Shown here: positions 1,875 to 42,105 of the stretch, piece after piece
How the letters are laid out: every line of letters starts with the position of its first letter
How positions within the stretch are numbered: position 1 is the first letter of the stretch
Sequence record: ON528745
DNA from: Shigella phage ESH35
Reading direction: 5' to 3' (one strand)
DNA length: 64,000 nucleotides
Translations under genes and position numbers: made by a program
The notes under the pieces: generated by a model
Told to the model about the DNA's origin: nothing
What the model saw: the letters and a program-made list of their open reading frames with translations, nothing else
Databases searched by the model: none

Positions 1875-3688
1875 CAATTGAAAAAGAAATTGAAGGATTG
1901 ATTCATAAAACTAATAAAGACCTTTTGAACGAGAATGCTAATAAAGATTCTCGTGTTTTTCCAACTCAACGGGACCTTATGGCTGGTATTGTGTCTAAAC
2001 ACATTGCCAAAAATATGGTCCCGTCTTTTATTATGAAAGCGCATGAAAGCGGAATTATTCATTTCCATGATATTGATTATTCCCCTGCTCTTCCATTTAC
2101 TAATTGTTGTTTAGTAGATTTAAAAGGAATGCTTGAAAACGGATTTAAGCTAGGTAATGCACAGATTGAAACTCCTAAATCAATTGGAGTTGCTACTGCA
2201 ATTATGGCACAAATTACTGCGCAAGTTGCTTCTCACCAATACGGCGGAACGACTTTTGCGAATGTAGATAAAGTACTTTCTCCTTATGTTAAACGCACCT
2301 ATGCAAAACATATTGAGGATGCAGAAAAATGGCAAATCGCTGATGCGTTAAATTATGCTCAATCTAAAACAGAAAAAGATGTATACGATGCATTCCAAGC
2401 TTATGAATATGAAGTAAATACTCTCTTTAGTTCAAACGGACAGACTCCTTTTGTAACAATTACATTTGGTACGGGAACTGACTGGACTGAACGAATGATT
2501 CAGAAAGCAATTCTGAAAAATCGTATTAAAGGTCTCGGTCGTGATGGGATAACTCCTATTTTCCCTAAGCTTGTTATGTTCGTTGAAGAAGGTGTTAATC
2601 TTTATAAAGACGATCCGAACTATGATATTAAGCAGCTTGCTCTAGAGTGTGCAAGCAAAAGGATGTATCCTGATATTATTTCAGCTAAGAACAATAAAGC
2701 TATCACCGGCTCATCTATTCCTGTTTCTCCAATGGGTTGCCGCAGTTTCTTGAGTGCGTGGAAAGATTCAACCGGTAATGAAATTCTTGATGGACGTAAT
2801 AATCTTGGTGTTGTAACACTGAATCTTCCTCGTATTGCGTTGGATTCTTATATTGGAACACAGTTCAATGAACAGAAATTTACTGAATTGTTCAATGAGC
2901 GAATGGATTTATGTTTTGAAGCTTTGATGTGTAGAATTAGTTCCTTAAAAGGAGTTAAAGCGACTGTTGCTCCTATTCTTTATCAAGAAGGTGCATTCGG
3001 GGTTCGTCTTAAACCTGATGACGACATAATTGAGTTATTTAAAAACGGTAGAAGTTCAGTGTCTTTAGGATACATTGGTATTCATGAATTGAATATTCTT
3101 GTCGGTCGTGATATTGGACAAGAAATTTTAACTAAAATGAATGCTCGTCTTAAACAGTGGGCTGAAAGAACTGGGTTTGCTTTTAGTTTGTATTCGACTC
3201 CTGCTGAAAACCTTTGTTATCGCTTCTGTAAACTTGATACAGAAAAATATGGAAGTGTAAAAGATGTTACCGATAAAGGATGGTACACTAACAGTTTCCA
3301 TGTTTCAGTAGAAGAAAATATTACTCCGTTTGAAAAGATTTCTCGCGAAGCCCCATATCATTTCATTGCGACAGGTGGTCACATTTCTTATGTTGAACTT
3401 CCTGATATGAAAAATAACCTAAAAGGTCTTGAGGCTGTCTGGGATTATGCTGCACAACATTTAGATTATTTTGGTGTTAATATGCCAGTAGATAAATGTT
3501 TTACATGTGGAAGTACCCATGAAATGACTCCTACTGAAAACGGATTTGTTTGTTCTATTTGTGGAGAAACTGATCCTAAAAAGATGAACACAATAAGAAG
3601 AACATGTGGTTATTTGGGAAATCCGAACGAACGCGGATTTAATCTCGGCAAAAATAAAGAAATCATGCATAGGGTTAAGCACCAATGA
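1871..3688 (+). CDS. nrdD: anaerobic ribonucleoside-triphosphate reductase, uninterrupted
   Basis: 605 aa; C-terminal CxxC...CxxC zinc site and glycyl-radical region; ATGA overlap with gene 49. Confidence 0.95.
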   Translation: MTIEKEIEGLIHKTNKDLLNENANKDSRVFPTQRDLMAGIVSKHIAKNMVPSFIMKAHESGIIHFHDIDYSPALPFTNCCLVDLKGMLENGFKLGNAQIETPKSIGVATAIMAQITAQVASHQYGGTTFANVDKVLSPYVKRTYAKHIEDAEKWQIADALNYAQSKTEKDVYDAFQAYEYEVNTLFSSNGQTPFVTITFGTGTDWTERMIQKAILKNRIKGLGRDGITPIFPKLVMFVEEGVNLYKDDPNYDIKQLALECASKRMYPDIISAKNNKAITGSSIPVSPMGCRSFLSAWKDSTGNEILDGRNNLGVVTLNLPRIALDSYIGTQFNEQKFTELFNERMDLCFEALMCRISSLKGVKATVAPILYQEGAFGVRLKPDDDIIELFKNGRSSVSLGYIGIHELNILVGRDIGQEILTKMNARLKQWAERTGFAFSLYSTPAENLCYRFCKLDTEKYGSVKDVTDKGWYTNSFHVSVEENITPFEKISREAPYHFIATGGHISYVELPDMKNNLKGLEAVWDYAAQHLDYFGVNMPVDKCFTCGSTHEMTPTENGFVCSICGETDPKKMNTIRRTCGYLGNPNERGFNLGKNKEIMHRVKHQ

Positions 3689-4155
3689 ATTATGATAGAT
3701 TTTATCCTTGCGATTTTGTTAATGGTCCTGGCTGTAGGACCGTTCTTTTCGTTACAGGTTGTTTGCATAAATGTGAAGGGTGTTATAATAAATCAACATG
3801 GAATGCTAGAAATGGTGTTCCATTCACTGGTGAAACACTAGAACAATTAATTGAATGTTTGAATAATGATTATATAGAAGGATTGACTATAACCGGAGGT
3901 GACCCTCTCTATCCTGATAACCGAGATGTTGTTCATTGCATTGTTCAAACAGTAAAAAATTTTTATCCCAATAAAAGCATTTGGTTGTGGACAGGATATA
4001 AATTTGAAGATATTAAACAACTAGAAATGCTTAAATATGTTGATGTTATTATTGATGGGAAGTATGAGAAAAATCTTCCGACCAAAAAGCTGTGGCGAGG
4101 ATCAGATAATCAGCGACTTTGGTCAAATACCGATGGGGTGTGGAAACATGATTAA
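3685..4155 (+). CDS. nrdG: anaerobic RNR activating enzyme (radical SAM)
   Basis: 156 aa; CxxxCxxC motif (CLHKCEGC); ATGA overlap with nrdD stop. Confidence 0.9.
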   Translation: MNYDRFYPCDFVNGPGCRTVLFVTGCLHKCEGCYNKSTWNARNGVPFTGETLEQLIECLNNDYIEGLTITGGDPLYPDNRDVVHCIVQTVKNFYPNKSIWLWTGYKFEDIKQLEMLKYVDVIIDGKYEKNLPTKKLWRGSDNQRLWSNTDGVWKHD

Positions 4156-17060: not shown

Positions 17061-19757
17061 ATGAAAGAATTTTATATCTCTATCGAAACAGTCGGAAATA
17101 ATATTGTTGAACGTTATATTGATGAAAATGGAAAGGAACGTACCCGTGAAGTAGAATATCTTCCGACTATGTTTAGGCATTGTAAGGAAGAGTCAAAATA
17201 CAAAGACATTTATGGTAAAAATTGTGCTCCTCAAAAATTTCCATCAATGAAAGATGCACGAGACTGGATGAAACGAATGGAAGACATTGGTCTCGAAGCT
17301 CTCGGTATGAACGATTTTAAACTCGCTTATATCAGTGATACATATGGTTCAGAAATTGTTTATGACCGAAAATTTGTTCGTGTAGCTAACTGTGACATTG
17401 AGGTTACTGGTGATAAATTTCCTGACCCAATGAAAGCAGAATATGAAATTGATGCTATCACTCATTATGATTCAATTGACGATCGTTTTTACGTCTTTGA
17501 TTTGTTGAATTCAATGTACGGTTCAGTATCAAAATGGGATGCAAAGTTAGCTGCTAAGCTTGACTGTGAAGGTGGTGATGAAGTTCCTCAAGAAATTCTT
17601 GACCGAGTAATTTATATGCCATTTGATAATGAGCGTGATATGCTCATGGAATATATTAATCTCTGGGAACAGAAACGACCTGCTATTTTTACCGGTTGGA
17701 ATATTGAGGGATTTGACGTTCCGTATATCATGAATCGTGTTAAAATGGTTCTCGGTGAACGTAGTATGAAACGCTTCTCTCCAATCGGTCGAGTAAAATC
17801 TAAACTAATTCAAAATATGTACGGTAGCAAAGAAATTTATTCTATTGATGGCGTATCTATTCTTGATTATTTAGATTTATACAAGAAGTTCGCATTTACT
17901 AATTTGCCATCGTTCTCTTTGGAATCAGTTGCTCAACATGAAACCAAAAAAGGTAAATTGCCGTACGATGGTCCTATTAATAAACTTCGTGAGACTAATC
18001 ATCAACGATACATTAGTTATAACATCATTGACGTAGAATCAGTTCAAGCAATTGATAAAATTCGTGGGTTTATCGATCTAGTTTTAAGTATGTCTTATTA
18101 CGCTAAAATGCCTTTTTCTGGTGTAATGAGTCCTATTAAAACTTGGGATGCTATTATTTTTAACTCACTGAAAGGTGAACATAAGGTTATTCCTCAACAA
18201 GGTTCGCACGTTAAACAGAGTTTTCCAGGTGCATTTGTGTTTGAACCTAAACCGATTGCTCGTCGATACATTATGAGTTTTGACTTGACGTCTCTGTATC
18301 CTAGCATTATTCGTCAGGTTAACATTAGTCCTGAGACTATTCGTGGGCAGTTTAAAGTTCATCCAATTCATGAATATATCGCAGGAACAGCTCCTAAGCC
18401 AAGTGATGAATATTCTTGCTCTCCGAATGGATGGATGTATGATAAGCACCAAGAAGGTATCATTCCAAAGGAAATCGCTAAAGTATTTTTCCAGCGTAAA
18501 GATTGGAAAAAGAAAATGTTCGCGGAAGAAATGAATGCCGAAGCTATTAAAAAGATTATTATGAAAGGTGCAGGGTCTTGCTCAACTAAACCAGAAGTTG
18601 AACGATATGTTAAGTTCAATGATGATTTCTTAAACGAATTATCGAATTACACTGAATCTGTTCTTAATAGTCTGATTGAAGAATGTGAAAAAGCTGCTAC
18701 ACTCGCTAACACAAATCAGCTGAACCGTAAAATTCTTATTAACAGTCTTTATGGTGCTCTTGGTAATATTCATTTCCGCTACTATGATTTGCGAAATGCT
18801 ACTGCTATCACAATTTTCGGTCAAGTCGGTATTCAGTGGATTGCTCGTAAAATTAATGAGTATCTAAATAAAGTATGTGGAACTAATGGTGAAGATTTCA
18901 TCGCAGCAGGTGATACTGATTCGGTATATGTTTGTGTAGATAAAGTTATTGAAAAAGTAGGTCTTGACCGCTTTAAAGAACAAAATGATTTAGTTGAATT
19001 CATGAATCAGTTCGGTAAGAAAAAGATGGAACCTATGATTGATGTTGCATATCGTGAGTTATGTGATTATATGAATAATCGCGAGCATCTGATGCATATG
19101 GACCGTGAAGCTATTTCTTGTCCTCCGCTTGGTTCAAAGGGTGTTGGTGGATTTTGGAAAGCGAAAAAACGTTATGCTCTGAACGTTTATGATATGGAAG
19201 ATAAGCGATTTGCTGAACCACATCTAAAAATCATGGGTATGGAAACTCAGCAGAGTTCAACACCAAAAGCAGTACAAGAAGCTCTCGAAGAAAGTATTCG
19301 TCGTATTCTTCAAGAAGGTGAAGAGTCTGTCCAAGAATATTACAAGAACTTCGAGAAAGAATATCGTCAACTTGACTATAAAGTTATTGCTGAAGTAAAA
19401 ACTGCGAACGATATAGCGAAATATGATGATAAAGGTTGGCCAGGATTTAAATGCCCGTTCCATATTCGTGGTGTGCTAACTTATCGTCGAGCTGTTAGCG
19501 GTTTAGGTGTAGCTCCAATTTTGGATGGAAATAAAGTAATGGTTCTTCCATTGCGTGAAGGAAATCCATTTGGTGACAAATGCATTGCTTGGCCGTCGGG
19601 TACAGAACTTCCAAAAGAAATTCGTTCTGACGTACTGTCTTGGATTGACTACTCAACTTTGTTCCAAAAATCGTTTGTTAAACCGCTTGCGGGCATGTGT
19701 GAATCGGCTGGTATGGACTATGAAGAAAAAGCTTCGTTAGACTTCCTGTTTGGCTGA
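17061..19757 (+). CDS. 43: DNA polymerase (family B)
   Basis: 898 aa; exonuclease and polymerase motifs (DIE, SLYPSII, DTDS). Confidence 0.97.
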   Translation: MKEFYISIETVGNNIVERYIDENGKERTREVEYLPTMFRHCKEESKYKDIYGKNCAPQKFPSMKDARDWMKRMEDIGLEALGMNDFKLAYISDTYGSEIVYDRKFVRVANCDIEVTGDKFPDPMKAEYEIDAITHYDSIDDRFYVFDLLNSMYGSVSKWDAKLAAKLDCEGGDEVPQEILDRVIYMPFDNERDMLMEYINLWEQKRPAIFTGWNIEGFDVPYIMNRVKMVLGERSMKRFSPIGRVKSKLIQNMYGSKEIYSIDGVSILDYLDLYKKFAFTNLPSFSLESVAQHETKKGKLPYDGPINKLRETNHQRYISYNIIDVESVQAIDKIRGFIDLVLSMSYYAKMPFSGVMSPIKTWDAIIFNSLKGEHKVIPQQGSHVKQSFPGAFVFEPKPIARRYIMSFDLTSLYPSIIRQVNISPETIRGQFKVHPIHEYIAGTAPKPSDEYSCSPNGWMYDKHQEGIIPKEIAKVFFQRKDWKKKMFAEEMNAEAIKKIIMKGAGSCSTKPEVERYVKFNDDFLNELSNYTESVLNSLIEECEKAATLANTNQLNRKILINSLYGALGNIHFRYYDLRNATAITIFGQVGIQWIARKINEYLNKVCGTNGEDFIAAGDTDSVYVCVDKVIEKVGLDRFKEQNDLVEFMNQFGKKKMEPMIDVAYRELCDYMNNREHLMHMDREAISCPPLGSKGVGGFWKAKKRYALNVYDMEDKRFAEPHLKIMGMETQQSSTPKAVQEALEESIRRILQEGEESVQEYYKNFEKEYRQLDYKVIAEVKTANDIAKYDDKGWPGFKCPFHIRGVLTYRRAVSGLGVAPILDGNKVMVLPLREGNPFGDKCIAWPSGTELPKEIRSDVLSWIDYSTLFQKSFVKPLAGMCESAGMDYEEKASLDFLFG

Positions 19758-19770
19758 TAGAATAAATCTA

Positions 19771-19791
19771 GGGACCTCCGGGTCCCTTTTT
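19771..19791 (+). terminator. rho-independent terminator after gene 43
   Basis: GGGACC-tccg-GGTCCC then TTTTT. Confidence 0.7.
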
Positions 19792-19874
19792 CATACAAGT
19801 AATATAAATCTATACTTATGAAAAACAGATGATTCTGGACCTTTAGAATTCCCTAAAAAATTTTCACAAAACTG

Positions 19875-19903
19875 TTTACAAGACTGTTCTTCTGTGGTAC
19901 TAT
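19875..19903 (+). promoter_or_regulatory. T4-type early promoter with conserved leader
   Basis: TTTACA, 17 bp, TGgTACTAT; leader shared with copies at 38436 and 48910. Confidence 0.6.
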
Positions 19904-19940
19904 ACAACTATCAACTACTGATACAGATTTGGAGAATAAA

Positions 19941-20177
19941 ATGAAAATTGTTATGGGATGCTTAGCAGTTTGTTTAGTTGCATTAGTAGCAGTTCCATTT
20001 GTTAGTGTTGAAAATGATACTCAACCTGTGATTAAATCTAGCACCGTTATTCACACTAATGGTAAAATATCAGTTAAAATTGATGATAATCTTCATATGA
20101 ATACTAATGGAACGTTGGGTGTTCAATTAGGTAATACCTGTGTAAGCACTACTGGAGTAATTACTACTTGTATTTGA
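19941..20177 (+). CDS. small secreted protein with signal peptide (78 aa)
   Basis: GGAGA SD; hydrophobic N-terminus. Confidence 0.45.
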   Translation: MKIVMGCLAVCLVALVAVPFVSVENDTQPVIKSSTVIHTNGKISVKIDDNLHMNTNGTLGVQLGNTCVSTTGVITTCI

Positions 20178-20187
20178 GGAAATTATT

Positions 20188-20568
20188 ATGAAAATCGCTA
20201 TTTTGGTTATTGCATTAGGTCTTACTGGCTGTGTAGCTCAAGGACCGGTAGTAAATCAATCTGATGTAGGAAAAATTGTAAACTGTTCAAGCAAATTTTA
20301 TAATCCTAATGTTAAGTGTTATAAAGAAGCTCCAAAACAGACAGTAGAACAGATGCAGGCGAATTTTGACGAAGCTATTCGCCCAGATGAATCTGCTCAA
20401 GCATATCGTAATTCAGATGTAATTACACGCGAAGAAAAAATTGAAAACTACTGCGCCGAAATTTGGGCTAATTGGGCTAATAATTACCAATGGCGTACTG
20501 GTAAAAATGCTCCGATGGAGTATGTAGTGAATTCTTATAATTCATGTGTAAAAAATTTGACTAAGTGA
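20188..20568 (+). CDS. putative lipoprotein (126 aa)
   Basis: signal peptide ending in lipobox LTGC. Confidence 0.5.
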   Translation: MKIAILVIALGLTGCVAQGPVVNQSDVGKIVNCSSKFYNPNVKCYKEAPKQTVEQMQANFDEAIRPDESAQAYRNSDVITREEKIENYCAEIWANWANNYQWRTGKNAPMEYVVNSYNSCVKNLTK

Positions 20569-20575
20569 GGAAAAC

Positions 20576-20827
20576 ATGGAAACTTTAGTAGCAGGTTCAA
20601 TTTTTATGGTTTTAGTTTCAGGTGTGTTGGCTATTATTATATACATGCTTCCATGGTTCATCGCCTTGATGCGTGGGTCAAAATCAACAGTAGGAATCTT
20701 TTTCACGTCTTTACTGTTTAACTGGTCAATTATTGGTTGGTTTATTACATTTATTTGGTCAATTGCGGGTGAAACTAAAAAGTCTGCACAACCAAATCAG
20801 GTAATTATCATCAGAGAGAAGGAATGA
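20576..20827 (+). CDS. imm: immunity (superinfection exclusion) membrane protein
   Basis: 83 aa, two transmembrane segments, between 43 and 42. Confidence 0.65.
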   Translation: METLVAGSIFMVLVSGVLAIIIYMLPWFIALMRGSKSTVGIFFTSLLFNWSIIGWFITFIWSIAGETKKSAQPNQVIIIREKE

Positions 20828-20973
20828 AAAGCAAAATTATAGCAGTGTTGCTTTTAATCTTGATGATTATAATAAGTATATACTATAGTGTAACGGTTCC
20901 TCTTATGATTCCAACTATTATTTTAGGTTGGGGTTTATTACTGTTACAAGTTAAATATGAATGTATCAATTGA
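20824..20973 (+). CDS. small membrane protein (49 aa)
   Basis: ATGA overlap with imm; entirely hydrophobic. Confidence 0.3.
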   Translation: MKSKIIAVLLLILMIIISIYYSVTVPLMIPTIILGWGLLLLQVKYECIN

Positions 20974-20980
20974 GGTTTAA

Positions 20981-21721
20981 ATGATTAGTGACTCTATGAC
21001 AGTTGAAGAAATCCGTCTTCATTTGGGGCTTGCATTAAAAGAAAAAGATTTCGTAGTTGATAAAACTGGTGTTAAAACTATTGAAATTATTGGCGCATCA
21101 TTTGTAGCAGATGAACCGTTTATTTTTGGCGCTCTTAATGATGAATACATTCAGCGTGAACTTGAATGGTATAAATCTAAGAGCTTGTTTGTTAAAGATA
21201 TTCCAGGTGAAACACCAAAGATTTGGCAGCAGGTAGCATCTTCTAAAGGCGAAATTAACTCGAATTATGGTTGGGCTATCTGGTCAGAAGATAACTATGC
21301 CCAGTATGATATGTGTTTAGCTGAACTTGGTCAAAATCCTGATTCTCGACGTGGTATCATGATTTATACTCGTCCATCCATGCAATTTGACTACAATAAA
21401 GATGGTATGTCAGATTTCATGTGTACGAATACAGTACAGTACCTGATTCGTGATAAGAAAGTCAATGCAGTAGTAAGCATGCGTTCAAATGACGTGGTCT
21501 TCGGATTCCGTAATGATTATGCATGGCAAAAATACGTATTAGATAAATTAGTATCTGATTTGAATGCAGGTGATTCAACTCGTCAGTATAAAGCAGGTTC
21601 CATTATATGGAATGTCGGGAGCCTTCATGTGTATTCCCGTCATTTTTATTTGGTTGACCATTGGTGGAAAACTGGTGAAACACATATTGCGAAAAAAGAT
21701 TATAACGGTGAGTGGAAATGA
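20981..21721 (+). CDS. 42: dCMP hydroxymethylase
   Basis: 246 aa, thymidylate-synthase-like fold motifs. Confidence 0.93.
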   Translation: MISDSMTVEEIRLHLGLALKEKDFVVDKTGVKTIEIIGASFVADEPFIFGALNDEYIQRELEWYKSKSLFVKDIPGETPKIWQQVASSKGEINSNYGWAIWSEDNYAQYDMCLAELGQNPDSRRGIMIYTRPSMQFDYNKDGMSDFMCTNTVQYLIRDKKVNAVVSMRSNDVVFGFRNDYAWQKYVLDKLVSDLNAGDSTRQYKAGSIIWNVGSLHVYSRHFYLVDHWWKTGETHIAKKDYNGEWK

Positions 21722-22560
21722 TTCAATTCGTAATTCCAAGCTATCAACGCGTAGGGGCAGTTTCTGCCCTTGATATGTTTCCATCTGATTATGAACCGCA
21801 TATTGTAGTACGTGAACACGAAGAAAAAGCTTATTATGACGCTTACGGGTCTAGAGCTAAAATTATAACTATTCCTGATGATGTTAACGGAATTGCTGGT
21901 ACTCGTAAAGCAATTACTGATATGTATGCAGGTCAACGAATTTGGATGATTGATGATGATACTACTATTTGTATGAGTTCAATGCGAAAGAAAGATGATC
22001 GTCGCTGTGTAGATAAAATTAATCAATTAACTCGTGAACAGTTCTATGAATTGATTCAATACGTTAAAGATGCCATGGATTGCGGTTATTATCATGGCCA
22101 TGCTCGTCTACCTATTTTTAAAATTACTTCATCTTGGGGTAATTATCGTGAAAATTCATATGGATTCACGAATACTTGGTATGACCTTGGAAAACTTACA
22201 ACAGAACAAATTGGGTATGGAAAAATTGATTTATGCGAAGATATGTATGCATTTCTCAATTTAATTAATCAAGGTTATCCGCATTTGGCCTTGTTCAAAT
22301 ATCTGGTTGTATCTGGAAAAGCACAGGCTCCGGGCGGGTGCAGTTCAATTCGTAGTAATTCAAAACATAATAGAGCTCTTGAGCAAATCAATAGAGAGTT
22401 TCCAGAGCAAGCTCGTTGGAAAACTTCTAATATTGAAAAACGAAAATCGTTGGGTGAAGAAGACGAGCCATTAAAGGTTCTTCGCATGTGTGTTTCGCGC
22501 AAAGAAAAATCAGAAGCATTTCATAAGTTTAATGCTATTCATCCAATAGCAGTTGATTAA
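21718..22560 (+). CDS. GT-A fold glycosyltransferase at the beta-gt locus (T2/T6 beta-alpha-gt type, inferred)
   Basis: 280 aa; DxD motif (IDDD); unlike recalled T4 beta-gt; ATGA overlap with gene 42. Confidence 0.6.
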   Translation: MIQFVIPSYQRVGAVSALDMFPSDYEPHIVVREHEEKAYYDAYGSRAKIITIPDDVNGIAGTRKAITDMYAGQRIWMIDDDTTICMSSMRKKDDRRCVDKINQLTREQFYELIQYVKDAMDCGYYHGHARLPIFKITSSWGNYRENSYGFTNTWYDLGKLTTEQIGYGKIDLCEDMYAFLNLINQGYPHLALFKYLVVSGKAQAPGGCSSIRSNSKHNRALEQINREFPEQARWKTSNIEKRKSLGEEDEPLKVLRMCVSRKEKSEAFHKFNAIHPIAVD

Positions 22561-26153: not shown

Positions 26154-26447
26154 ATGAAAAAATTTATTTTTGCTACAATTTTTACTTTGGCTTCTTGTGC
26201 TGCTCAGCCTGCTATGGCAGGTTATGATAAAGATTTGTGCGAATGGTCTATGACTGCTGATCAGACTGAGGTTGAAACTCAAATTGAAGCAGATATTATG
26301 AATATCGTTGAGCGCGATCGCCCTGAAATGAAAGCTGAAGTGCAAAAACAGCTTAAGTCTGGTGGTGTAATGCAGTATAATTATGTTCTATATTGCGATA
26401 AAAACTTTAATAATAAAAATATCATCGCTGAAGTGGTAGGTGAATAA
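26154..26447 (+). CDS. sp: spackle-like periplasmic protein
   Basis: 97 aa with cleavable signal peptide; GAGGAG SD. Confidence 0.65.
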   Translation: MKKFIFATIFTLASCAAQPAMAGYDKDLCEWSMTADQTEVETQIEADIMNIVERDRPEMKAEVQKQLKSGGVMQYNYVLYCDKNFNNKNIIAEVVGE

Positions 26448-39577: not shown

Positions 39578-39952
39578 ATGTTTAAAATCGGTAAGAAATA
39601 TCGTGTTCGCGAAGGTGAAGAAAAGAAATATCTACTTTCTGCTAGTAATAGGAATGGTTCTATTAATGCCGTAATATCTACAAGCGAATTTATCGTTGAA
39701 GATATGAAAGGTCATAATGTTACAATGATTAGTACAGCAACTAGCAGAAATGCTGGAAAAATTCTTCACAGTCTGCGGAGTGAAGTTCTAATTTATGATG
39801 AAGAATTTGACTTCTTCGAAGAAGTTCCTGAAGATTTTGATTTTGAATGCACTATCACTATGAAATCTGGTGACCCTCTTTCTTTTACAGTTAAAGATGA
39901 AAGAAGCCGTTTGAGAATTATTAGTCTCCTTCAAGCCATTAAATTTAAGTGA
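39578..39952 (+). CDS. hypothetical protein (124 aa)
   Basis: internal ATG of track ORF 39572..39952. Confidence 0.45.
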   Translation: MFKIGKKYRVREGEEKKYLLSASNRNGSINAVISTSEFIVEDMKGHNVTMISTATSRNAGKILHSLRSEVLIYDEEFDFFEEVPEDFDFECTITMKSGDPLSFTVKDERSRLRIISLLQAIKFK

Positions 39953-40218
39953 AAATTATGAAATATATTAATCGTTCTATCGCGGCATTAGTATTAGCAG
40001 TGTCTTTAGCAGGATGTACTGATGCTGATAATGCAACCAAAGTTTTATCTTCAAGTGGTTTTACTAATATTGAAATCACTGGATATAATTGGTTTGGTTG
40101 TTCTGAAAATGATTTCCAACATACTGGATTTCGTGCTATTGGACCTACTGGGCAGAAAGTAGAAGGAACAGTATGTTCTGGGCTGTTCTTTAAGGATTCA
40201 ACTATTCGTTTTAAATAA
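39949..40218 (+). CDS. putative lipoprotein (89 aa)
   Basis: signal peptide with lipobox LAGC. Confidence 0.5.
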   Translation: MKIMKYINRSIAALVLAVSLAGCTDADNATKVLSSSGFTNIEITGYNWFGCSENDFQHTGFRAIGPTGQKVEGTVCSGLFFKDSTIRFK

Positions 40219-40284: not shown

Positions 40285-42105
40285 GTGATGATTAAGAATG
40301 AAATTAAAATTCTGAGCGATATTGAACATATCAAAAAGCGTAGCGGCATGTATATTGGCTCTTCTGCTAATGAAATGCATGAGCGCTTTCTGTTTGGTAA
40401 ATGGGAAAGTGTTCAGTATGTACCTGGTCTTGTTAAGCTTATTGATGAAATTATCGATAACTCAGTAGATGAAGGTATTCGTACTAAGTTTAAATTCGCG
40501 AATAAAATTAATGTTACCATTAAAGATAATCAGGTAACAGTTGAAGATAACGGTCGCGGTATTCCACAAGCGATGGTTAAAACACCTACTGGTGAAGAAA
40601 TTCCTGGTCCTGTTGCTGCCTGGACTATTCCAAAAGCAGGTGGTAACTTCGGTGATGATAAAGAACGCGTCACCGGTGGTATGAATGGTGTTGGTTCTAG
40701 TTTGACAAACATTTTTTCTGTGATGTTTGTCGGTGAAACTGGCGATGGTCAAAATAATATTGTAGTTCGTTGTTCAAATGGTATGGAAAATAAATCCTGG
40801 GAAACTATTCCTGGAAAATGGAAAGGAACTCGTGTTACTTTCATTCCTGATTTTATGTCATTTGAAACTAATGAGCTGTCTCAGGTTTATCTTGACATTA
40901 CACTGGACCGTCTCCAGACACTTGCTGTCGTTTATCCTGATATTCAATTTACTTTTAATGGTAAAAAGGTTCAGGGCAATTTTAAGAAATATGCACGACA
41001 GTATGATGAACATGCTATTGTTCAAGAACAAGAAAATTGTTCTATTGCGGTTGGTCGTTCACCGGATGGTTTTCGTCAATTAACTTACGTGAATAACATT
41101 CATACTAAGAATGGTGGCCATCACATTGACTGTGTTATGGATGATATTTGCGAAGACCTTATTCCACAAATCAAACGTAAATTCAAAATTGATGTAACTA
41201 AAGCACGCGTTAAAGAATGTTTGACTATCGTTATGTTTGTTCGTGATATGAAAAACATGCGATTTGATTCTCAAACTAAAGAGCGTTTGACTTCTCCATT
41301 TGGCGAAATTCGTAGTCATATTCAACTTGATGCTAAAAAGATTTCACGCGCTATTCTAAATAATGAAGCAATTCTGATGCCGATTATTGAAGCTGCGTTG
41401 GCTCGTAAATTGGCGGCAGAAAAAGCAGCAGAAACTAAAGCAGCTAAAAAGGCTTCTAAAGCTAAGGTTCATAAACATATCAAAGCGAATCTTTGTGGTA
41501 AAGATGCTGACACTACTCTTTTCTTGACTGAGGGTGATTCTGCTATCGGATATCTTATTGATGTTCGTGATAAAGAACTTCATGGTGGTTATCCATTGCG
41601 TGGTAAAGTTCTTAACAGCTGGGGTATGTCATATGCTGATATGCTTAAAAACAAAGAACTATTTGATATTTGCGCAATCACTGGATTAGTTCTTGGTGAA
41701 AAAGCTGAAAACTTGAATTATCATAATATTGCTATTATGACCGATGCTGACCATGATGGTCTAGGAAGCATTTATCCTTCTCTGCTCGGGTTTTTTAGTA
41801 ATTGGCCAGAATTGTTTGAGCAAGGACGAATTCGCTTTGTCAAAACTCCTGTAATCATCGCTCAGGTCGGTAAAAAACAAGAATGGTTTTATACAATCGC
41901 TGAATATGAGAGTGCCAAAGATGCTCTACCTAAACATAGCATCCGTTATATTAAAGGACTTGGCTCTTTGGAAAAATCTGAATATCGTGAGATGATTCAA
42001 AATCCAGCATATGATGTTGTTAAACTTCCTGAGAACTGGAAAGAGCTTTTTGAAATGCTCATGGGAGATAATGCTGACCTTCGCAAAGAATGGATGAGCC
42101 AGTAG
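40285..42105 (+). CDS. 39: DNA topoisomerase II large (ATPase) subunit, unsplit
   Basis: 606 aa from GTG (605 from ATG 40288); GHKL ATPase motifs. Confidence 0.93.
   Translation: MMIKNEIKILSDIEHIKKRSGMYIGSSANEMHERFLFGKWESVQYVPGLVKLIDEIIDNSVDEGIRTKFKFANKINVTIKDNQVTVEDNGRGIPQAMVKTPTGEEIPGPVAAWTIPKAGGNFGDDKERVTGGMNGVGSSLTNIFSVMFVGETGDGQNNIVVRCSNGMENKSWETIPGKWKGTRVTFIPDFMSFETNELSQVYLDITLDRLQTLAVVYPDIQFTFNGKKVQGNFKKYARQYDEHAIVQEQENCSIAVGRSPDGFRQLTYVNNIHTKNGGHHIDCVMDDICEDLIPQIKRKFKIDVTKARVKECLTIVMFVRDMKNMRFDSQTKERLTSPFGEIRSHIQLDAKKISRAILNNEAILMPIIEAALARKLAAEKAAETKAAKKASKAKVHKHIKANLCGKDADTTLFLTEGDSAIGYLIDVRDKELHGGYPLRGKVLNSWGMSYADMLKNKELFDICAITGLVLGEKAENLNYHNIAIMTDADHDGLGSIYPSLLGFFSNWPELFEQGRIRFVKTPVIIAQVGKKQEWFYTIAEYESAKDALPKHSIRYIKGLGSLEKSEYREMIQNPAYDVVKLPENWKELFEMLMGDNADLRKEWMSQ

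Follow-up and report, generated by a model that had tools for sequence, protein, structure and literature searches.

Gene content and predicted transcription signals of the imm locus

The window analysed here is the whole 64,000-nucleotide stretch of Shigella phage ESH35 DNA (sequence record ON528745), which belongs to a Tequatrovirus genome. We found four open reading frames (ORF1 to ORF4), all on the plus strand, between the genes for DNA polymerase (gene 43) and dCMP hydroxymethylase (gene 42), where a preliminary description of this DNA had placed four small genes. The locus is the early imm ("immunity") cluster of a T4-type phage, and two of its genes, imm.1 and imm, are already annotated in T4 and AR1. 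The features of the locus are as follows.

19770..19795, plus strand: terminator-like hairpin (AGGGACC-TCCG-GGTCCCT and a T-run), directly 3' of the gene 43 stop
19874..19903, plus strand: early-promoter-like site, predicted (GTTTACA, 17 nt, TG-G-TACTAT)
19941..20177, plus strand: ORF1, 78 aa, phrog_4189, accessory gene with an ATG start
19941..19948, plus strand: ATGAAAAT, copy 1 of an 8-bp direct repeat bounding a 247-bp indel, from the alignment with T4
20188..20195, plus strand: ATGAAAAT, copy 2 of the direct repeat, coinciding with the imm.1 start, from the alignment with T4
20188..20568, plus strand: imm.1 (ORF2), 126 aa, predicted lipoprotein (MKIAILVIALGLTG followed by the lipobox C, with Val at +2), DUF5481, phrog_1754
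20576..20827, plus strand: imm (ORF3), 83 aa, superinfection immunity inner-membrane protein, PF14373 at 7.7e-16
20824..20973, plus strand: ORF4, 49-aa hydrophobic microprotein, phrog_3610, '42.1' in RB32, with an ATGA overlap with the imm stop

The one coordinate that changed is the start of ORF1. The gene is present, but position 19929, given earlier as its first nucleotide, is an in-frame TTG ahead of the GGAG ribosome-binding site, and the true ATG is at 19941. All ORF1 homologues begin MKI or MKV.

The terminator-like hairpin consists of a 7-bp stem with 5 GC pairs followed by TTTTT. Its sequence is also kept in T4, and the depositors of the fPS-90 record annotated a terminator at the homologous site. 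The predicted promoter combines TTTACA and TACTAT with an upstream TG; the T4 copy is identical, and fPS-90 carries a 'predicted early promoter' at the homologous site. The intergenic gaps from ORF1 to ORF4 are 10, 7 and -4 nt, and a GGAG/GAGGA site lies 5-8 nt upstream of each of ORF1-3. An Rfam scan of positions 19600-21100 found no RNA family. RNA polymerase would thus be expected to stop after gene 43, restart at the early promoter and read four small genes whose products, all with a hydrophobic N-terminus, are probably directed to the envelope.

For all four ORFs the in-frame pN/pS is below that of both shifted frames; judged by this substitution pattern, all four are real coding genes. 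The values are 0.42 for ORF1, 0.029 for imm.1, 0.056 for imm and 0.40 for ORF4, with gene 43 (0.008) and gene 42 (0.035) as controls. imm.1 is under very strong purifying selection, and its constraint matches that of essential genes (0.029 versus 0.035 for gene 42).

Properties of the four encoded proteins

ORF3 matches the Pfam family Imm_superinfect (PF14373) with 58.2 bits (cut-off 27.9) over profile positions 1-42 of 42, and it matches phrog_1039 (annotated 'immunity to superinfection') at 3.6e-32. The protein shares 98.8-100% identity with the T4 and T2 Imm sequences, from which we infer that it would exclude T-even phages and bind the tape-measure protein. Lu and Henning are said to have found in 1989 that plasmid-expressed Imm alone excludes T4. 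According to a recent preprint (bioRxiv 10.64898/2026.03.06.709160), plasmid-borne Imm alone excludes T4, Imm binds the tape-measure protein gp29 of the superinfecting phage and blocks genome translocation, and mutation of R33 or W50 in T4 Imm reduces exclusion. We found that R33 and W50 are both invariant in a seven-genus alignment. Since Imm alone is active from a plasmid, imm.1 is not required for Imm activity. The assignment of ORF3 to Imm in the preliminary description is borne out by PF14373, but its two-helix topology is not: the model in the preprint (bioRxiv 10.64898/2026.03.06.709160) has a helix 1 and a core of helices 2-4. A 94-aa extended form is possible for T4 Imm; in the window, an in-frame stop precedes the start of the 83-aa form with no other start codon in between, which makes the extended form unavailable here.

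ORF2 matches DUF5481 (PF17578) at 1.7e-71 (237.6 bits, cut-off 27) and phrog_1754 over its full length at 3e-44. It is approximately 98% identical to T4 imm.1 (UniProt P18057), with the same position and the same lipobox region, and on these grounds it is the ortholog of T4 imm.1; the T4 protein has 125 aa, and the extra residue of ORF2 is at the C-terminus. The protein starts MK-IAILVIALG-LTGC, that is, with a positive n-region, a hydrophobic h-region and a lipobox of the form [LVI][ASTVI][GAS]C whose Cys, at position 15, falls within the usual range of about 15-30. The LTGC lipobox recognized earlier in this 126-aa protein is thereby confirmed. Lipobox-like ORFs are few, with only 4 in the whole 64-kb window (regular expression, six frames), and the Pfam LPAM_1 match to ORF2 is weak (E 0.44). 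Among 20 members of the imm.1 family, the lipobox Cys is kept in 19 and none has Asp at +2, the residue in the window being Val. In E. coli, a lipoprotein lacking Asp at +2 is predicted to be sorted to the outer membrane.

We found that the AF2 model of imm.1 has an overall pLDDT of 66.6, with residues 1-45 below 50 and two helices (81-104 and 110-125) at about 90. The predicted layout is a low-confidence tether of approximately 35 residues followed by a C-terminal helical domain carrying C89 and C120, two residues that do not vary in the family alignment. The model had no PDB match below E = 2 and matched only its own family in BFVD. Searches of Pfam and NCBIfam returned no functional family for imm.1, and the same holds for ORF1 and ORF4. 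The product name 'iduronate sulfatase', given to imm.1 in the T4 RefSeq record, has no Pfam or NCBIfam support and is spurious.

ORF1 contains an N-terminal hydrophobic export segment (residues 3-19) and a beta-rich C-terminal domain of approximately 45 residues. Its AF2 model has six short strands at residues 35-77 (pLDDT about 85), and a fold search of this model against the PDB found no match. The conserved cysteines C67 and C77 suggest a periplasmic disulfide. In the predicted cleavage region most homologues have A-L-A before A/V-P-F, the window has L-V-A, and some phages tolerate a 7-residue duplication inside the h-region; the product may be either secreted or membrane-anchored.

Homologues of ORF1 are limited to Tequatrovirus and Dhakavirus. 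ORF1 is missing from T4, where our alignment places an exact 247-bp indel and the ORF1 leader is fused straight onto the imm.1 coding sequence at the 8-bp repeat; the alignment indicates that ORF1 was lost from T4 by recombination between the short repeats. ORF1 is present in 325 Tequatrovirus records, compared with 501 that have a close imm.1, so that roughly one third lack it, and in Dhakavirus it occupies another locus, near nudE, e and denV. This distribution gives no support to a link with imm for the 78-aa protein, which was earlier offered as a candidate exclusion factor. ORF1 probably encodes an accessory periplasmic protein without a functional tie to imm.

ORF4 matches phrog_3610 at 5.7e-26, and tblastn found it in 761 phage records. 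We describe it as translationally coupled to imm on the basis of the ATGA overlap. An alignment of seven sequences from six genera has 13 invariant columns, which include P26, M28-I29-P30-T31, W36, L41-Q42, C47 and N49. The hydrophobic stretch covers 39 residues and is interrupted by P26/P30, with K2, K4 and K44 at its ends. A 49-aa coding gene is thus present as proposed, but with the break at P26/P30 a hairpin of two hydrophobic segments is more likely than the single helix first assigned to it. An NCBIfam match to YidC was discarded as noise (16.5 bits against a cut-off of 452). The T4 genome also contains ORF4, although the T4 RefSeq record has no annotation for it.

The imm-ORF4 overlap is retained in Gaprivervirus and in one metagenomic contig. 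In Mosigvirus, ORF4 remains 3' of gene 43, apart from imm; there is no ORF4 beside imm in Gelderlandvirus and Jiaodavirus; and the Winklervirus CHI14, which lacks imm, carries ORF4. ORF4 would accordingly be best described as a conserved two-segment membrane microprotein with no functional tie to imm.

Conservation of imm.1 and its linkage to imm

At the amino acid level, imm.1 is at least 95% identical in 501 Tequatrovirus records. Among them are T2 (97.6%), T4-type phages and phages isolated on Escherichia, Shigella, Yersinia, Salmonella, Citrobacter and Serratia. T4 imm.1 belongs to the early-RNA and early-protein class, like sp/spackle (PMC9697503 supplements). Between Tequatrovirus and Mosigvirus the lipoprotein is 33% identical, compared with 64% for Imm.

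Our data indicate that the imm.1 family is small. A word-index search gave 3 clusters, relatives amounted to 6 representatives among 1.84 billion proteins, and a 10-sequence profile retrieved 21 proteins, none with a functional name and all of those with a named source from T4-like phages. All 20 lipoproteins collected, from at least 7 genera, match phrog_1754 over the full length. Compared profile to profile with signal peptides included, the two lipoprotein subgroups gave 97% (E 2e-11), confined to the N-terminal 44 columns, while the mature parts, in shallow alignments, gave a weak match (E 0.002-0.008, probability 5%). Because the comparison of mature parts is weak, we judged the kinship of the subgroups by their full-length phrog_1754 matches. 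In the literature searched there was nothing on DUF5481, no paper on imm.1 function and no experiment tying imm.1 to exclusion; imm.1 is mentioned solely as a marker gene for the T4 group.

Each of the 23 T4-like IMG/VR loci sampled has a same-strand lipobox ORF no more than 150 nt from imm, compared with 3 of the 57 other Imm-family loci; in the T4-like loci this ORF is a member of phrog_1754. The lipoprotein precedes imm in Tequatrovirus, Gelderlandvirus, Jiaodavirus, Muldoonvirus and phage Ursula, while in Gaprivervirus and Dhakavirus the order is imm, (ORF4), lipoprotein. In Mosigvirus, imm.1, imm and sp lie between genes 41 and 61, an arrangement which indicates that imm.1 and imm were relocated jointly to beside spackle. 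Metagenomic lipoproteins with sufficient context also adjoin Imm, a search with the imm.1 subgroup led to the same 7 loci as a search with Imm, and among Klebsiella phage records 135 have Imm and 135 have the lipoprotein.

Adjacency is not an absolute rule. In CHI14 the lipoprotein is directly 3' of gene 43 and imm is absent from the whole genome, and in Kanagawavirus gene 43 is followed by the lipoprotein and then by a protein of approximately 209 aa, with no imm locally; these two cases rule out the statement that the lipoprotein is always beside imm. The adjacency of imm.1 and imm could largely be inherited synteny 3' of gene 43, with few of the rearrangements being independent. Taken over the gene orders compared, only imm.1 and imm among the four genes travel together.

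Possible roles of imm.1

Beyond the existing annotation, imm.1 emerges as a strongly conserved, early-made gene beside imm in most related genera, which makes it a candidate exclusion factor. From its location and context, we consider it quite possible, though tentative, that imm.1 of the early imm unit is an outer-membrane lipoprotein facing the periplasm and contributes to superinfection exclusion at the level of the envelope. The protein would be exported and lipid-modified at Cys15, and the Lol system would place it in the outer membrane's inner leaflet, a destination predicted because the +2 residue is not Asp. Its helical domain, small and disulfide-locked, would be held in the periplasm on a flexible tether of approximately 35 residues. 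In this position imm.1 may serve as an extra exclusion or protection factor beside Imm in the inner membrane and Spackle in the periplasm. Its most likely target would be a part of the incoming injection apparatus that is invariant and exposed to the periplasm, or else a host envelope component that is conserved; receptor masking is a less likely mode of action. imm.1 probably works in parallel to Imm and not as an obligate subunit, since CHI14 has the lipoprotein without imm.

A more specific version, which we regard as rather doubtful, makes imm.1 the third component of T-even exclusion. The outer-membrane-tethered periplasmic protein would engage the incoming tail-tip/tape-measure apparatus or bridge to Imm, so that three layers would be guarded (the outer membrane by the lipoprotein, the periplasm by Spackle and the inner membrane by Imm), and genus-specific divergence of imm.1 would help to shape which phage excludes which.

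Small lipoproteins are known to shield infected cells or lysogens from being infected again. Examples are Llp of T5, an early gene product, and Cor of phi80 and N15, both of which act by binding the receptor FhuA. imm.1 resembles them as a predicted small phage outer-membrane lipoprotein and, with Llp, in its early expression. A protein of this type would bind the phage's own receptor and stop later phages from adsorbing or triggering; we consider such a role improbable for imm.1. Two imm.1 family members match the Cor PHROG (phrog_1119) weakly, at E about 1e-3, but these matches span only residues 1-23 or 1-40, which are signal peptide and lipobox; past the signal peptide imm.1 has no sequence or fold relationship to Llp or Cor, and Pfam and NCBIfam gave it no match to any known exclusion lipoprotein. 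The receptors of T-even phages differ (OmpC, OmpF/FadL, Tsx). A protein that masks a receptor would be expected to vary with receptor specificity, yet imm.1 is nearly invariant across the 501 Tequatrovirus records and their many host genera, which argues against masking in general and against receptor binding of the FhuA type. The preliminary description had offered the lipoprotein as a candidate for either exclusion or receptor masking. Its candidacy for exclusion has been strengthened by the constraint, the early class and the linkage to imm, while near-invariance speaks against masking.

It is also possible, if somewhat unlikely, that imm.1 acts on the envelope for purposes other than exclusion, such as stabilising or remodelling it during infection or countering a surface defence of the host, and that it adjoins imm through synteny inherited 3' of gene 43. 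The imm-less CHI14 and the similar local arrangement in Kanagawavirus are consistent with this, as is the activity of Imm alone from a plasmid, and a pN/pS of 0.029 fits a housekeeping interaction better than a protein engaged in an arms race. Against it, the Mosigvirus lipoprotein left gene 43 together with imm and is now beside spackle, while ORF4 and other neighbours stayed; adjacency was preserved when the order relative to imm was flipped in Gaprivervirus and Dhakavirus; and a relative that is not lipidated still has Imm and ORF4 after it, on a contig where the upstream gene is a different one. The broadest reading treats the four genes as a single envelope module whose products function together, with exclusion roles for ORF1 and ORF4 too; it appears very improbable. 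The single predicted transcription unit with its tight spacing and ATGA overlap, the hydrophobic N-termini of all four proteins and the imm-ORF4 overlap kept in Gaprivervirus and a metagenomic contig would fit such a module, but ORF1 and ORF4 have the scattered distributions described above, including the loss of ORF1 from T4 and its separate locus in Dhakavirus, and selection on both is relaxed (pN/pS about 0.4). Since the four do not vary together, the 'quartet' proposed as a unit is left unsupported.

For the exclusion role that we favour, the closest functional analogy would be Ltp. PMC3952083 describes Ltp of Streptococcus phage TP-J34 as a lipoprotein in superinfection exclusion. Unlike imm.1, Ltp is surface-exposed, and it is encoded by a temperate phage whose host is Gram-positive; the two have no detectable homology. 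Bebeacua et al. reportedly found in 2013 that Ltp targets the incoming phage's tape-measure protein, which would put its target in one class with that of Imm. Spackle (sp, gene 61.3) is a second point of comparison, described in PMC7677548 as an early, exported, periplasmic exclusion protein. Spackle and imm.1 share the T4 early-RNA and early-protein class, and in Mosigvirus sp directly follows imm.1-imm. Spackle is soluble and inhibits the gp5 lysozyme, whereas imm.1 is predicted to be lipid-anchored with a different helical domain; a relationship between the two was rejected for want of sequence similarity.

Superinfection exclusion by T4 is a textbook system for which a molecular explanation is only recent. 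The action of Spackle on gp5 lysozyme was explained in 2020, and that of Imm on the tape-measure protein in the 2026 preprint (bioRxiv 10.64898/2026.03.06.709160). Should imm.1 prove to be involved in exclusion, it would round off our view of how an infected cell seals every layer of its envelope. It could also help to account for exclusion across phage genera, a point of practical importance in designing phage cocktails. Should it not be involved, such constraint would still mark an essential-like envelope interaction.

We also considered whether imm.1 and Imm could be a spanin pair, with imm.1 as o-spanin and Imm as i-spanin. Architecture and timing rule this out: Imm, at 83 aa, is hydrophobic nearly throughout and has no periplasmic domain, whereas an i-spanin carries a long periplasmic coiled coil, and the unit is early (an early-type predicted promoter, and the early class of T4 imm.1), whereas spanin pairs are expressed late. 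In CHI14, a separate pseT.2-type lipoprotein is annotated elsewhere in the genome. Finally, the analysis yields corrections to existing annotation, namely the conserved 49-aa gene missing from the T4 reference, the spurious product name of imm.1 and the loss of ORF1 from T4.

Layout and coding status of the locus

The window phage is T4-type (Tequatrovirus), and a 1.2-kb region of it is matched by 518 phage records, with AR1 as the top match (97.9%). As the preliminary description had proposed, four small ORFs lie between the polymerase and hydroxymethylase genes; all are on the same strand. We compared pN/pS in the true frame with both shifted frames, using 9-14 distinct Tequatrovirus sequences. 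In-frame pN/pS was below either shifted frame for each ORF, indicating that all four are coding.

Features of the locus, with in-frame pN/pS
17061-19757, gene 43, DNA polymerase; 3' part (control) 0.008
19770-19787, terminator-like hairpin, followed by a T-run, 3' of gene 43
19874-19903, early-promoter-like site (GTTTACA, 17 nt, TG-G-TACTAT)
19941-20177, + strand, ORF1, 78 aa; 0.42
20188-20568, + strand, ORF2 (imm.1), 126 aa; 0.029
20576-20827, + strand, ORF3 (imm), 83 aa; 0.056
20824-20973, + strand, ORF4, 49 aa; 0.40
20981-21721, gene 42, dCMP hydroxymethylase; 5' part (control) 0.035

The constraint on ORF2 equals that on its essential neighbours, while ORF1 and ORF4 evolve far more freely. 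In phage fPS-90 the depositor marked a terminator at the position homologous to the hairpin and a 'predicted early promoter' at the one homologous to the promoter-like site, and no Rfam family matches the region of the four ORFs.

Much of this locus is already known: imm and imm.1 have annotations, hundreds of genomes carry calls for the four ORFs, and no new kind of system is involved. Our data add, modestly, evidence that the phrog_1754 lipoprotein (imm.1) accompanies imm as a conserved gene product under strong constraint, show that the T4 reference annotation omits a conserved gene (ORF4), and identify ORF1 as mobile and accessory.

Downstream of gene 42, a 282-aa protein (21712-22560, + strand) is of the beta-glucosyl-HMC-alpha-glucosyltransferase type according to the AR1 annotation, and not the T4 beta-glucosyltransferase, making the window phage T2/T6-like in DNA glucosylation. 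T4 segA is missing between this gene and uvsX.

The imm.1 lipoprotein family and its linkage to imm

ORF2 is T4 imm.1 (Pfam DUF5481 at 1.7e-71, with a phrog_1754 match). Its N-terminus, MKIAILVIALGLTG-C, reads as a classic lipobox (Cys15, followed by Val at +2), and a lipobox regex run over six frames of the 64-kb window returned just four candidates, including imm.1 and the signal peptide of Spackle; the lipobox that the preliminary description assigned to this 126-aa protein is borne out. Time-resolved T4 omics (PMC9697503 supplements) class imm.1, like spackle, as early RNA and early protein, so the protein is made. Its identity is at least 95% in 501 records and approximately 33% in 155, apparently Mosigvirus, with no intermediate identities among matching phage records. 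The AF2 model (mean pLDDT 66.6) is of low confidence over residues 1-45, followed by four helices, of which the final two (81-104 and 110-125; pLDDT approximately 90) carry C89 and C120, invariant in the family alignment. Fold searches against PDB and BFVD gave no informative match, and we found no paper on imm.1 function. The RefSeq product name of T4 imm.1 is 'iduronate sulfatase' (T4 locus 3637-4014, NP_049661.1), a name carried into further records, e.g., fPS-2 and JLBYU31. It is unsupported, as Pfam and NCBIfam yield DUF5481 only, and looks spurious.

Each of the 20 lipoproteins collected matches the whole length of the phrog_1754 profile; they form one family, sharing the lipobox Cys (19/20) and Y38 in addition to C89 and C120. 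We found that a lipobox protein adjoins imm in every imm-bearing T4-like lineage examined, although the arrangement varies.

Gene order around imm
Tequatrovirus: 43 / (ORF1) / imm.1 / imm / ORF4 / 42
Mosigvirus: imm.1-like / imm / spackle, between genes 41 and 61
Gelderlandvirus, Jiaodavirus and phage Ursula: 43 / lipoprotein / imm / 42
Muldoonvirus: lipoprotein overlapping imm
Gaprivervirus: imm / ORF4 / lipoprotein
Dhakavirus: imm / lipoprotein

Among 80 IMG/VR loci with an Imm relative, a same-strand lipobox ORF lies within 150 nt of imm in all 23 T4-like loci versus 3 of the 57 others. In three Imm-family loci that are not T4-like (L060 2926-3444, L068 3147-3380 and L048 3299-3724) a lipobox ORF overlaps or adjoins the Imm match; in L060 it overlaps the Imm-like region itself. 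Metagenomic family members with sufficient context also adjoin Imm, including one variant in which an ordinary signal peptide replaces the lipobox, Imm and ORF4 follow and a different gene precedes. Klebsiella phage records comprise 135 with Imm and 135 with the lipoprotein. In the Winklervirus phage CHI14 the lipoprotein lies directly 3' of gene 43, and its whole genome contains no Imm homologue (best hmmsearch E-value 0.02) or Imm motif; two Kanagawavirus loci share this local arrangement. These loci indicate that the lipoprotein is not an obligate Imm subunit.

Possible roles of imm.1

ORF3 is Imm (PF14373 at 58.2 bits, cut-off 27.9), with 98.8-100% identity to T4 and T2 Imm; Tequatrovirus and apparent Mosigvirus records share approximately 64%. 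We infer an envelope-level exclusion or protection role for imm.1 alongside Imm and Spackle. The protein would carry a lipid anchor and, since Asp at +2 is absent from all family members, be sorted to the outer membrane; a tether of approximately 35 residues would hold its small helical domain in the periplasm. Early expression, strong constraint, the joint move with imm to a position next to spackle, and imm adjacency that persists through order flips all support this role. The nearest functional analogy, and an analogy only, is Ltp, a lipoprotein from a Gram-positive system (Streptococcus phage TP-J34) that targets a tape-measure protein. imm.1 has no similarity to Spackle.

Receptor masking, the mode of the exclusion lipoproteins Llp and Cor, was one of the two functions offered in the preliminary description. 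T2 and T4 receptors differ, yet imm.1 is near-invariant across phages using them, which argues against masking and points to a target, in phage or host, that does not vary. Likeness to Cor is confined to the signal peptide. The main rival to an exclusion role is an envelope function unrelated to exclusion, with imm adjacency being inherited synteny. In its favour, CHI14 keeps the lipoprotein without imm, and Imm expressed from a plasmid is reported to be sufficient on its own, blocking genome translocation through binding to gp29, the tape-measure protein (2026 preprint, bioRxiv 10.64898/2026.03.06.709160).

ORF1, ORF4 and other lipobox genes

ORF1 and ORF4 are located or lost separately from imm across genera, so the proposed four-gene quartet is not one unit. 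ORF1 (phrog_4189; no Pfam match) is likely exported, judging from a hydrophobic segment at residues 3-19, and may be cleaved and secreted, as described earlier, or stay membrane-anchored; the predicted cleavage point is preceded by L-V-A in the window versus A-L-A in most homologues. Two cysteines, C67 and C77, are conserved; in the AF2 model residues 35-77 form six short strands (pLDDT approximately 85). By tblastn, ORF1 occurs in 325 records versus 501 for close imm.1. T4 lacks it through an exact 247-bp indel (window 19941-20195 versus T4 locus ~4010-4030) flanked by a pair of ATGAAAAT repeats, each consisting of a start codon (that of ORF1 or of imm.1) and the next five bases; the pattern resembles recombination between short repeats. 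Outside Tequatrovirus the only relatives are Dhakavirus proteins (62% identical), whose genes are distant from imm, in the vicinity of nudE, lysozyme e and denV. We found ORF1 to be a mobile accessory gene. In some Tequatroviruses the hydrophobic segment contains a tandem duplication of 7 residues (CLVALA + A/V; L093 1126-1383, L014 2333-2602; proteins P0029, P0034). One such variant is labelled 'Lipoprotein' in UniRef; the two N-terminal Cys are not conserved in Dhakavirus homologues. At the indel site, Shigella phage CT01 shows a different rearrangement, with the promoter/imm.1 5' segment duplicated and ORF1 truncated.

ORF4 (phrog_3610; '42.1' in RB32) is intact in T4, where it has 49 aa with two substitutions and lies in the 153-bp imm-42 gap that NC_000866 leaves unannotated (T4 locus 3228-3377, - strand; NC_000866.4 ~26227-26376). 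Its homologues span six genera and share invariant P26, MIPT (28-31), W36, LQ (41-42), C47 and N49. The 49-aa gene described earlier is thus real, but its 39 consecutive hydrophobic residues, with lysines at both ends, are broken by P26 and P30, and a two-segment hairpin would fit better than the single helix first proposed. ORF4 remains 3' of gene 43 in Mosigvirus, where imm is elsewhere, is present in CHI14 without imm, and is not found next to imm in Gelderlandvirus or Jiaodavirus. In Mosigvirus, Winklervirus and Kanagawavirus, gene 43 is followed by a ~210-aa protein (annotated D-arabinose-5-phosphate isomerase in CHI14), an ORF4 homologue and a ~560-aa protein (L004 1818-4320, L110 1911-3399, L111 1997-3489); the homologue's start overlaps the ~210-aa gene, coupling it to a different upstream gene. 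Within ORF4 of the window, TGCTTTT (20849-20855), 12 nt and TATAAT (20868-20873) resemble a MotA-dependent middle promoter that would serve gene 42, and phage Lutter has a depositor-annotated promoter under ORF4. If the motif is real, ORF4 would overlap a regulatory site.

A second clear lipobox ORF (39949-40218, + strand, GTG start, 89 aa, ...AALVLAVSLAG-C-TDADN) lies directly upstream of topoisomerase gene 39 (40285-42105); its homologue is gp39.1 in the CHI14 annotation. T4-type phages seem to encode approximately three true lipoproteins each, namely 39.1, the imm.1 family and the o-spanin. The Spackle gene (26154-26447, + strand, 97 aa) encodes a signal peptide with a lipobox-like L-A-S-C before an A-M-A cleavage site, a feature also present in the Mosigvirus and CHI14 Spackle homologues.
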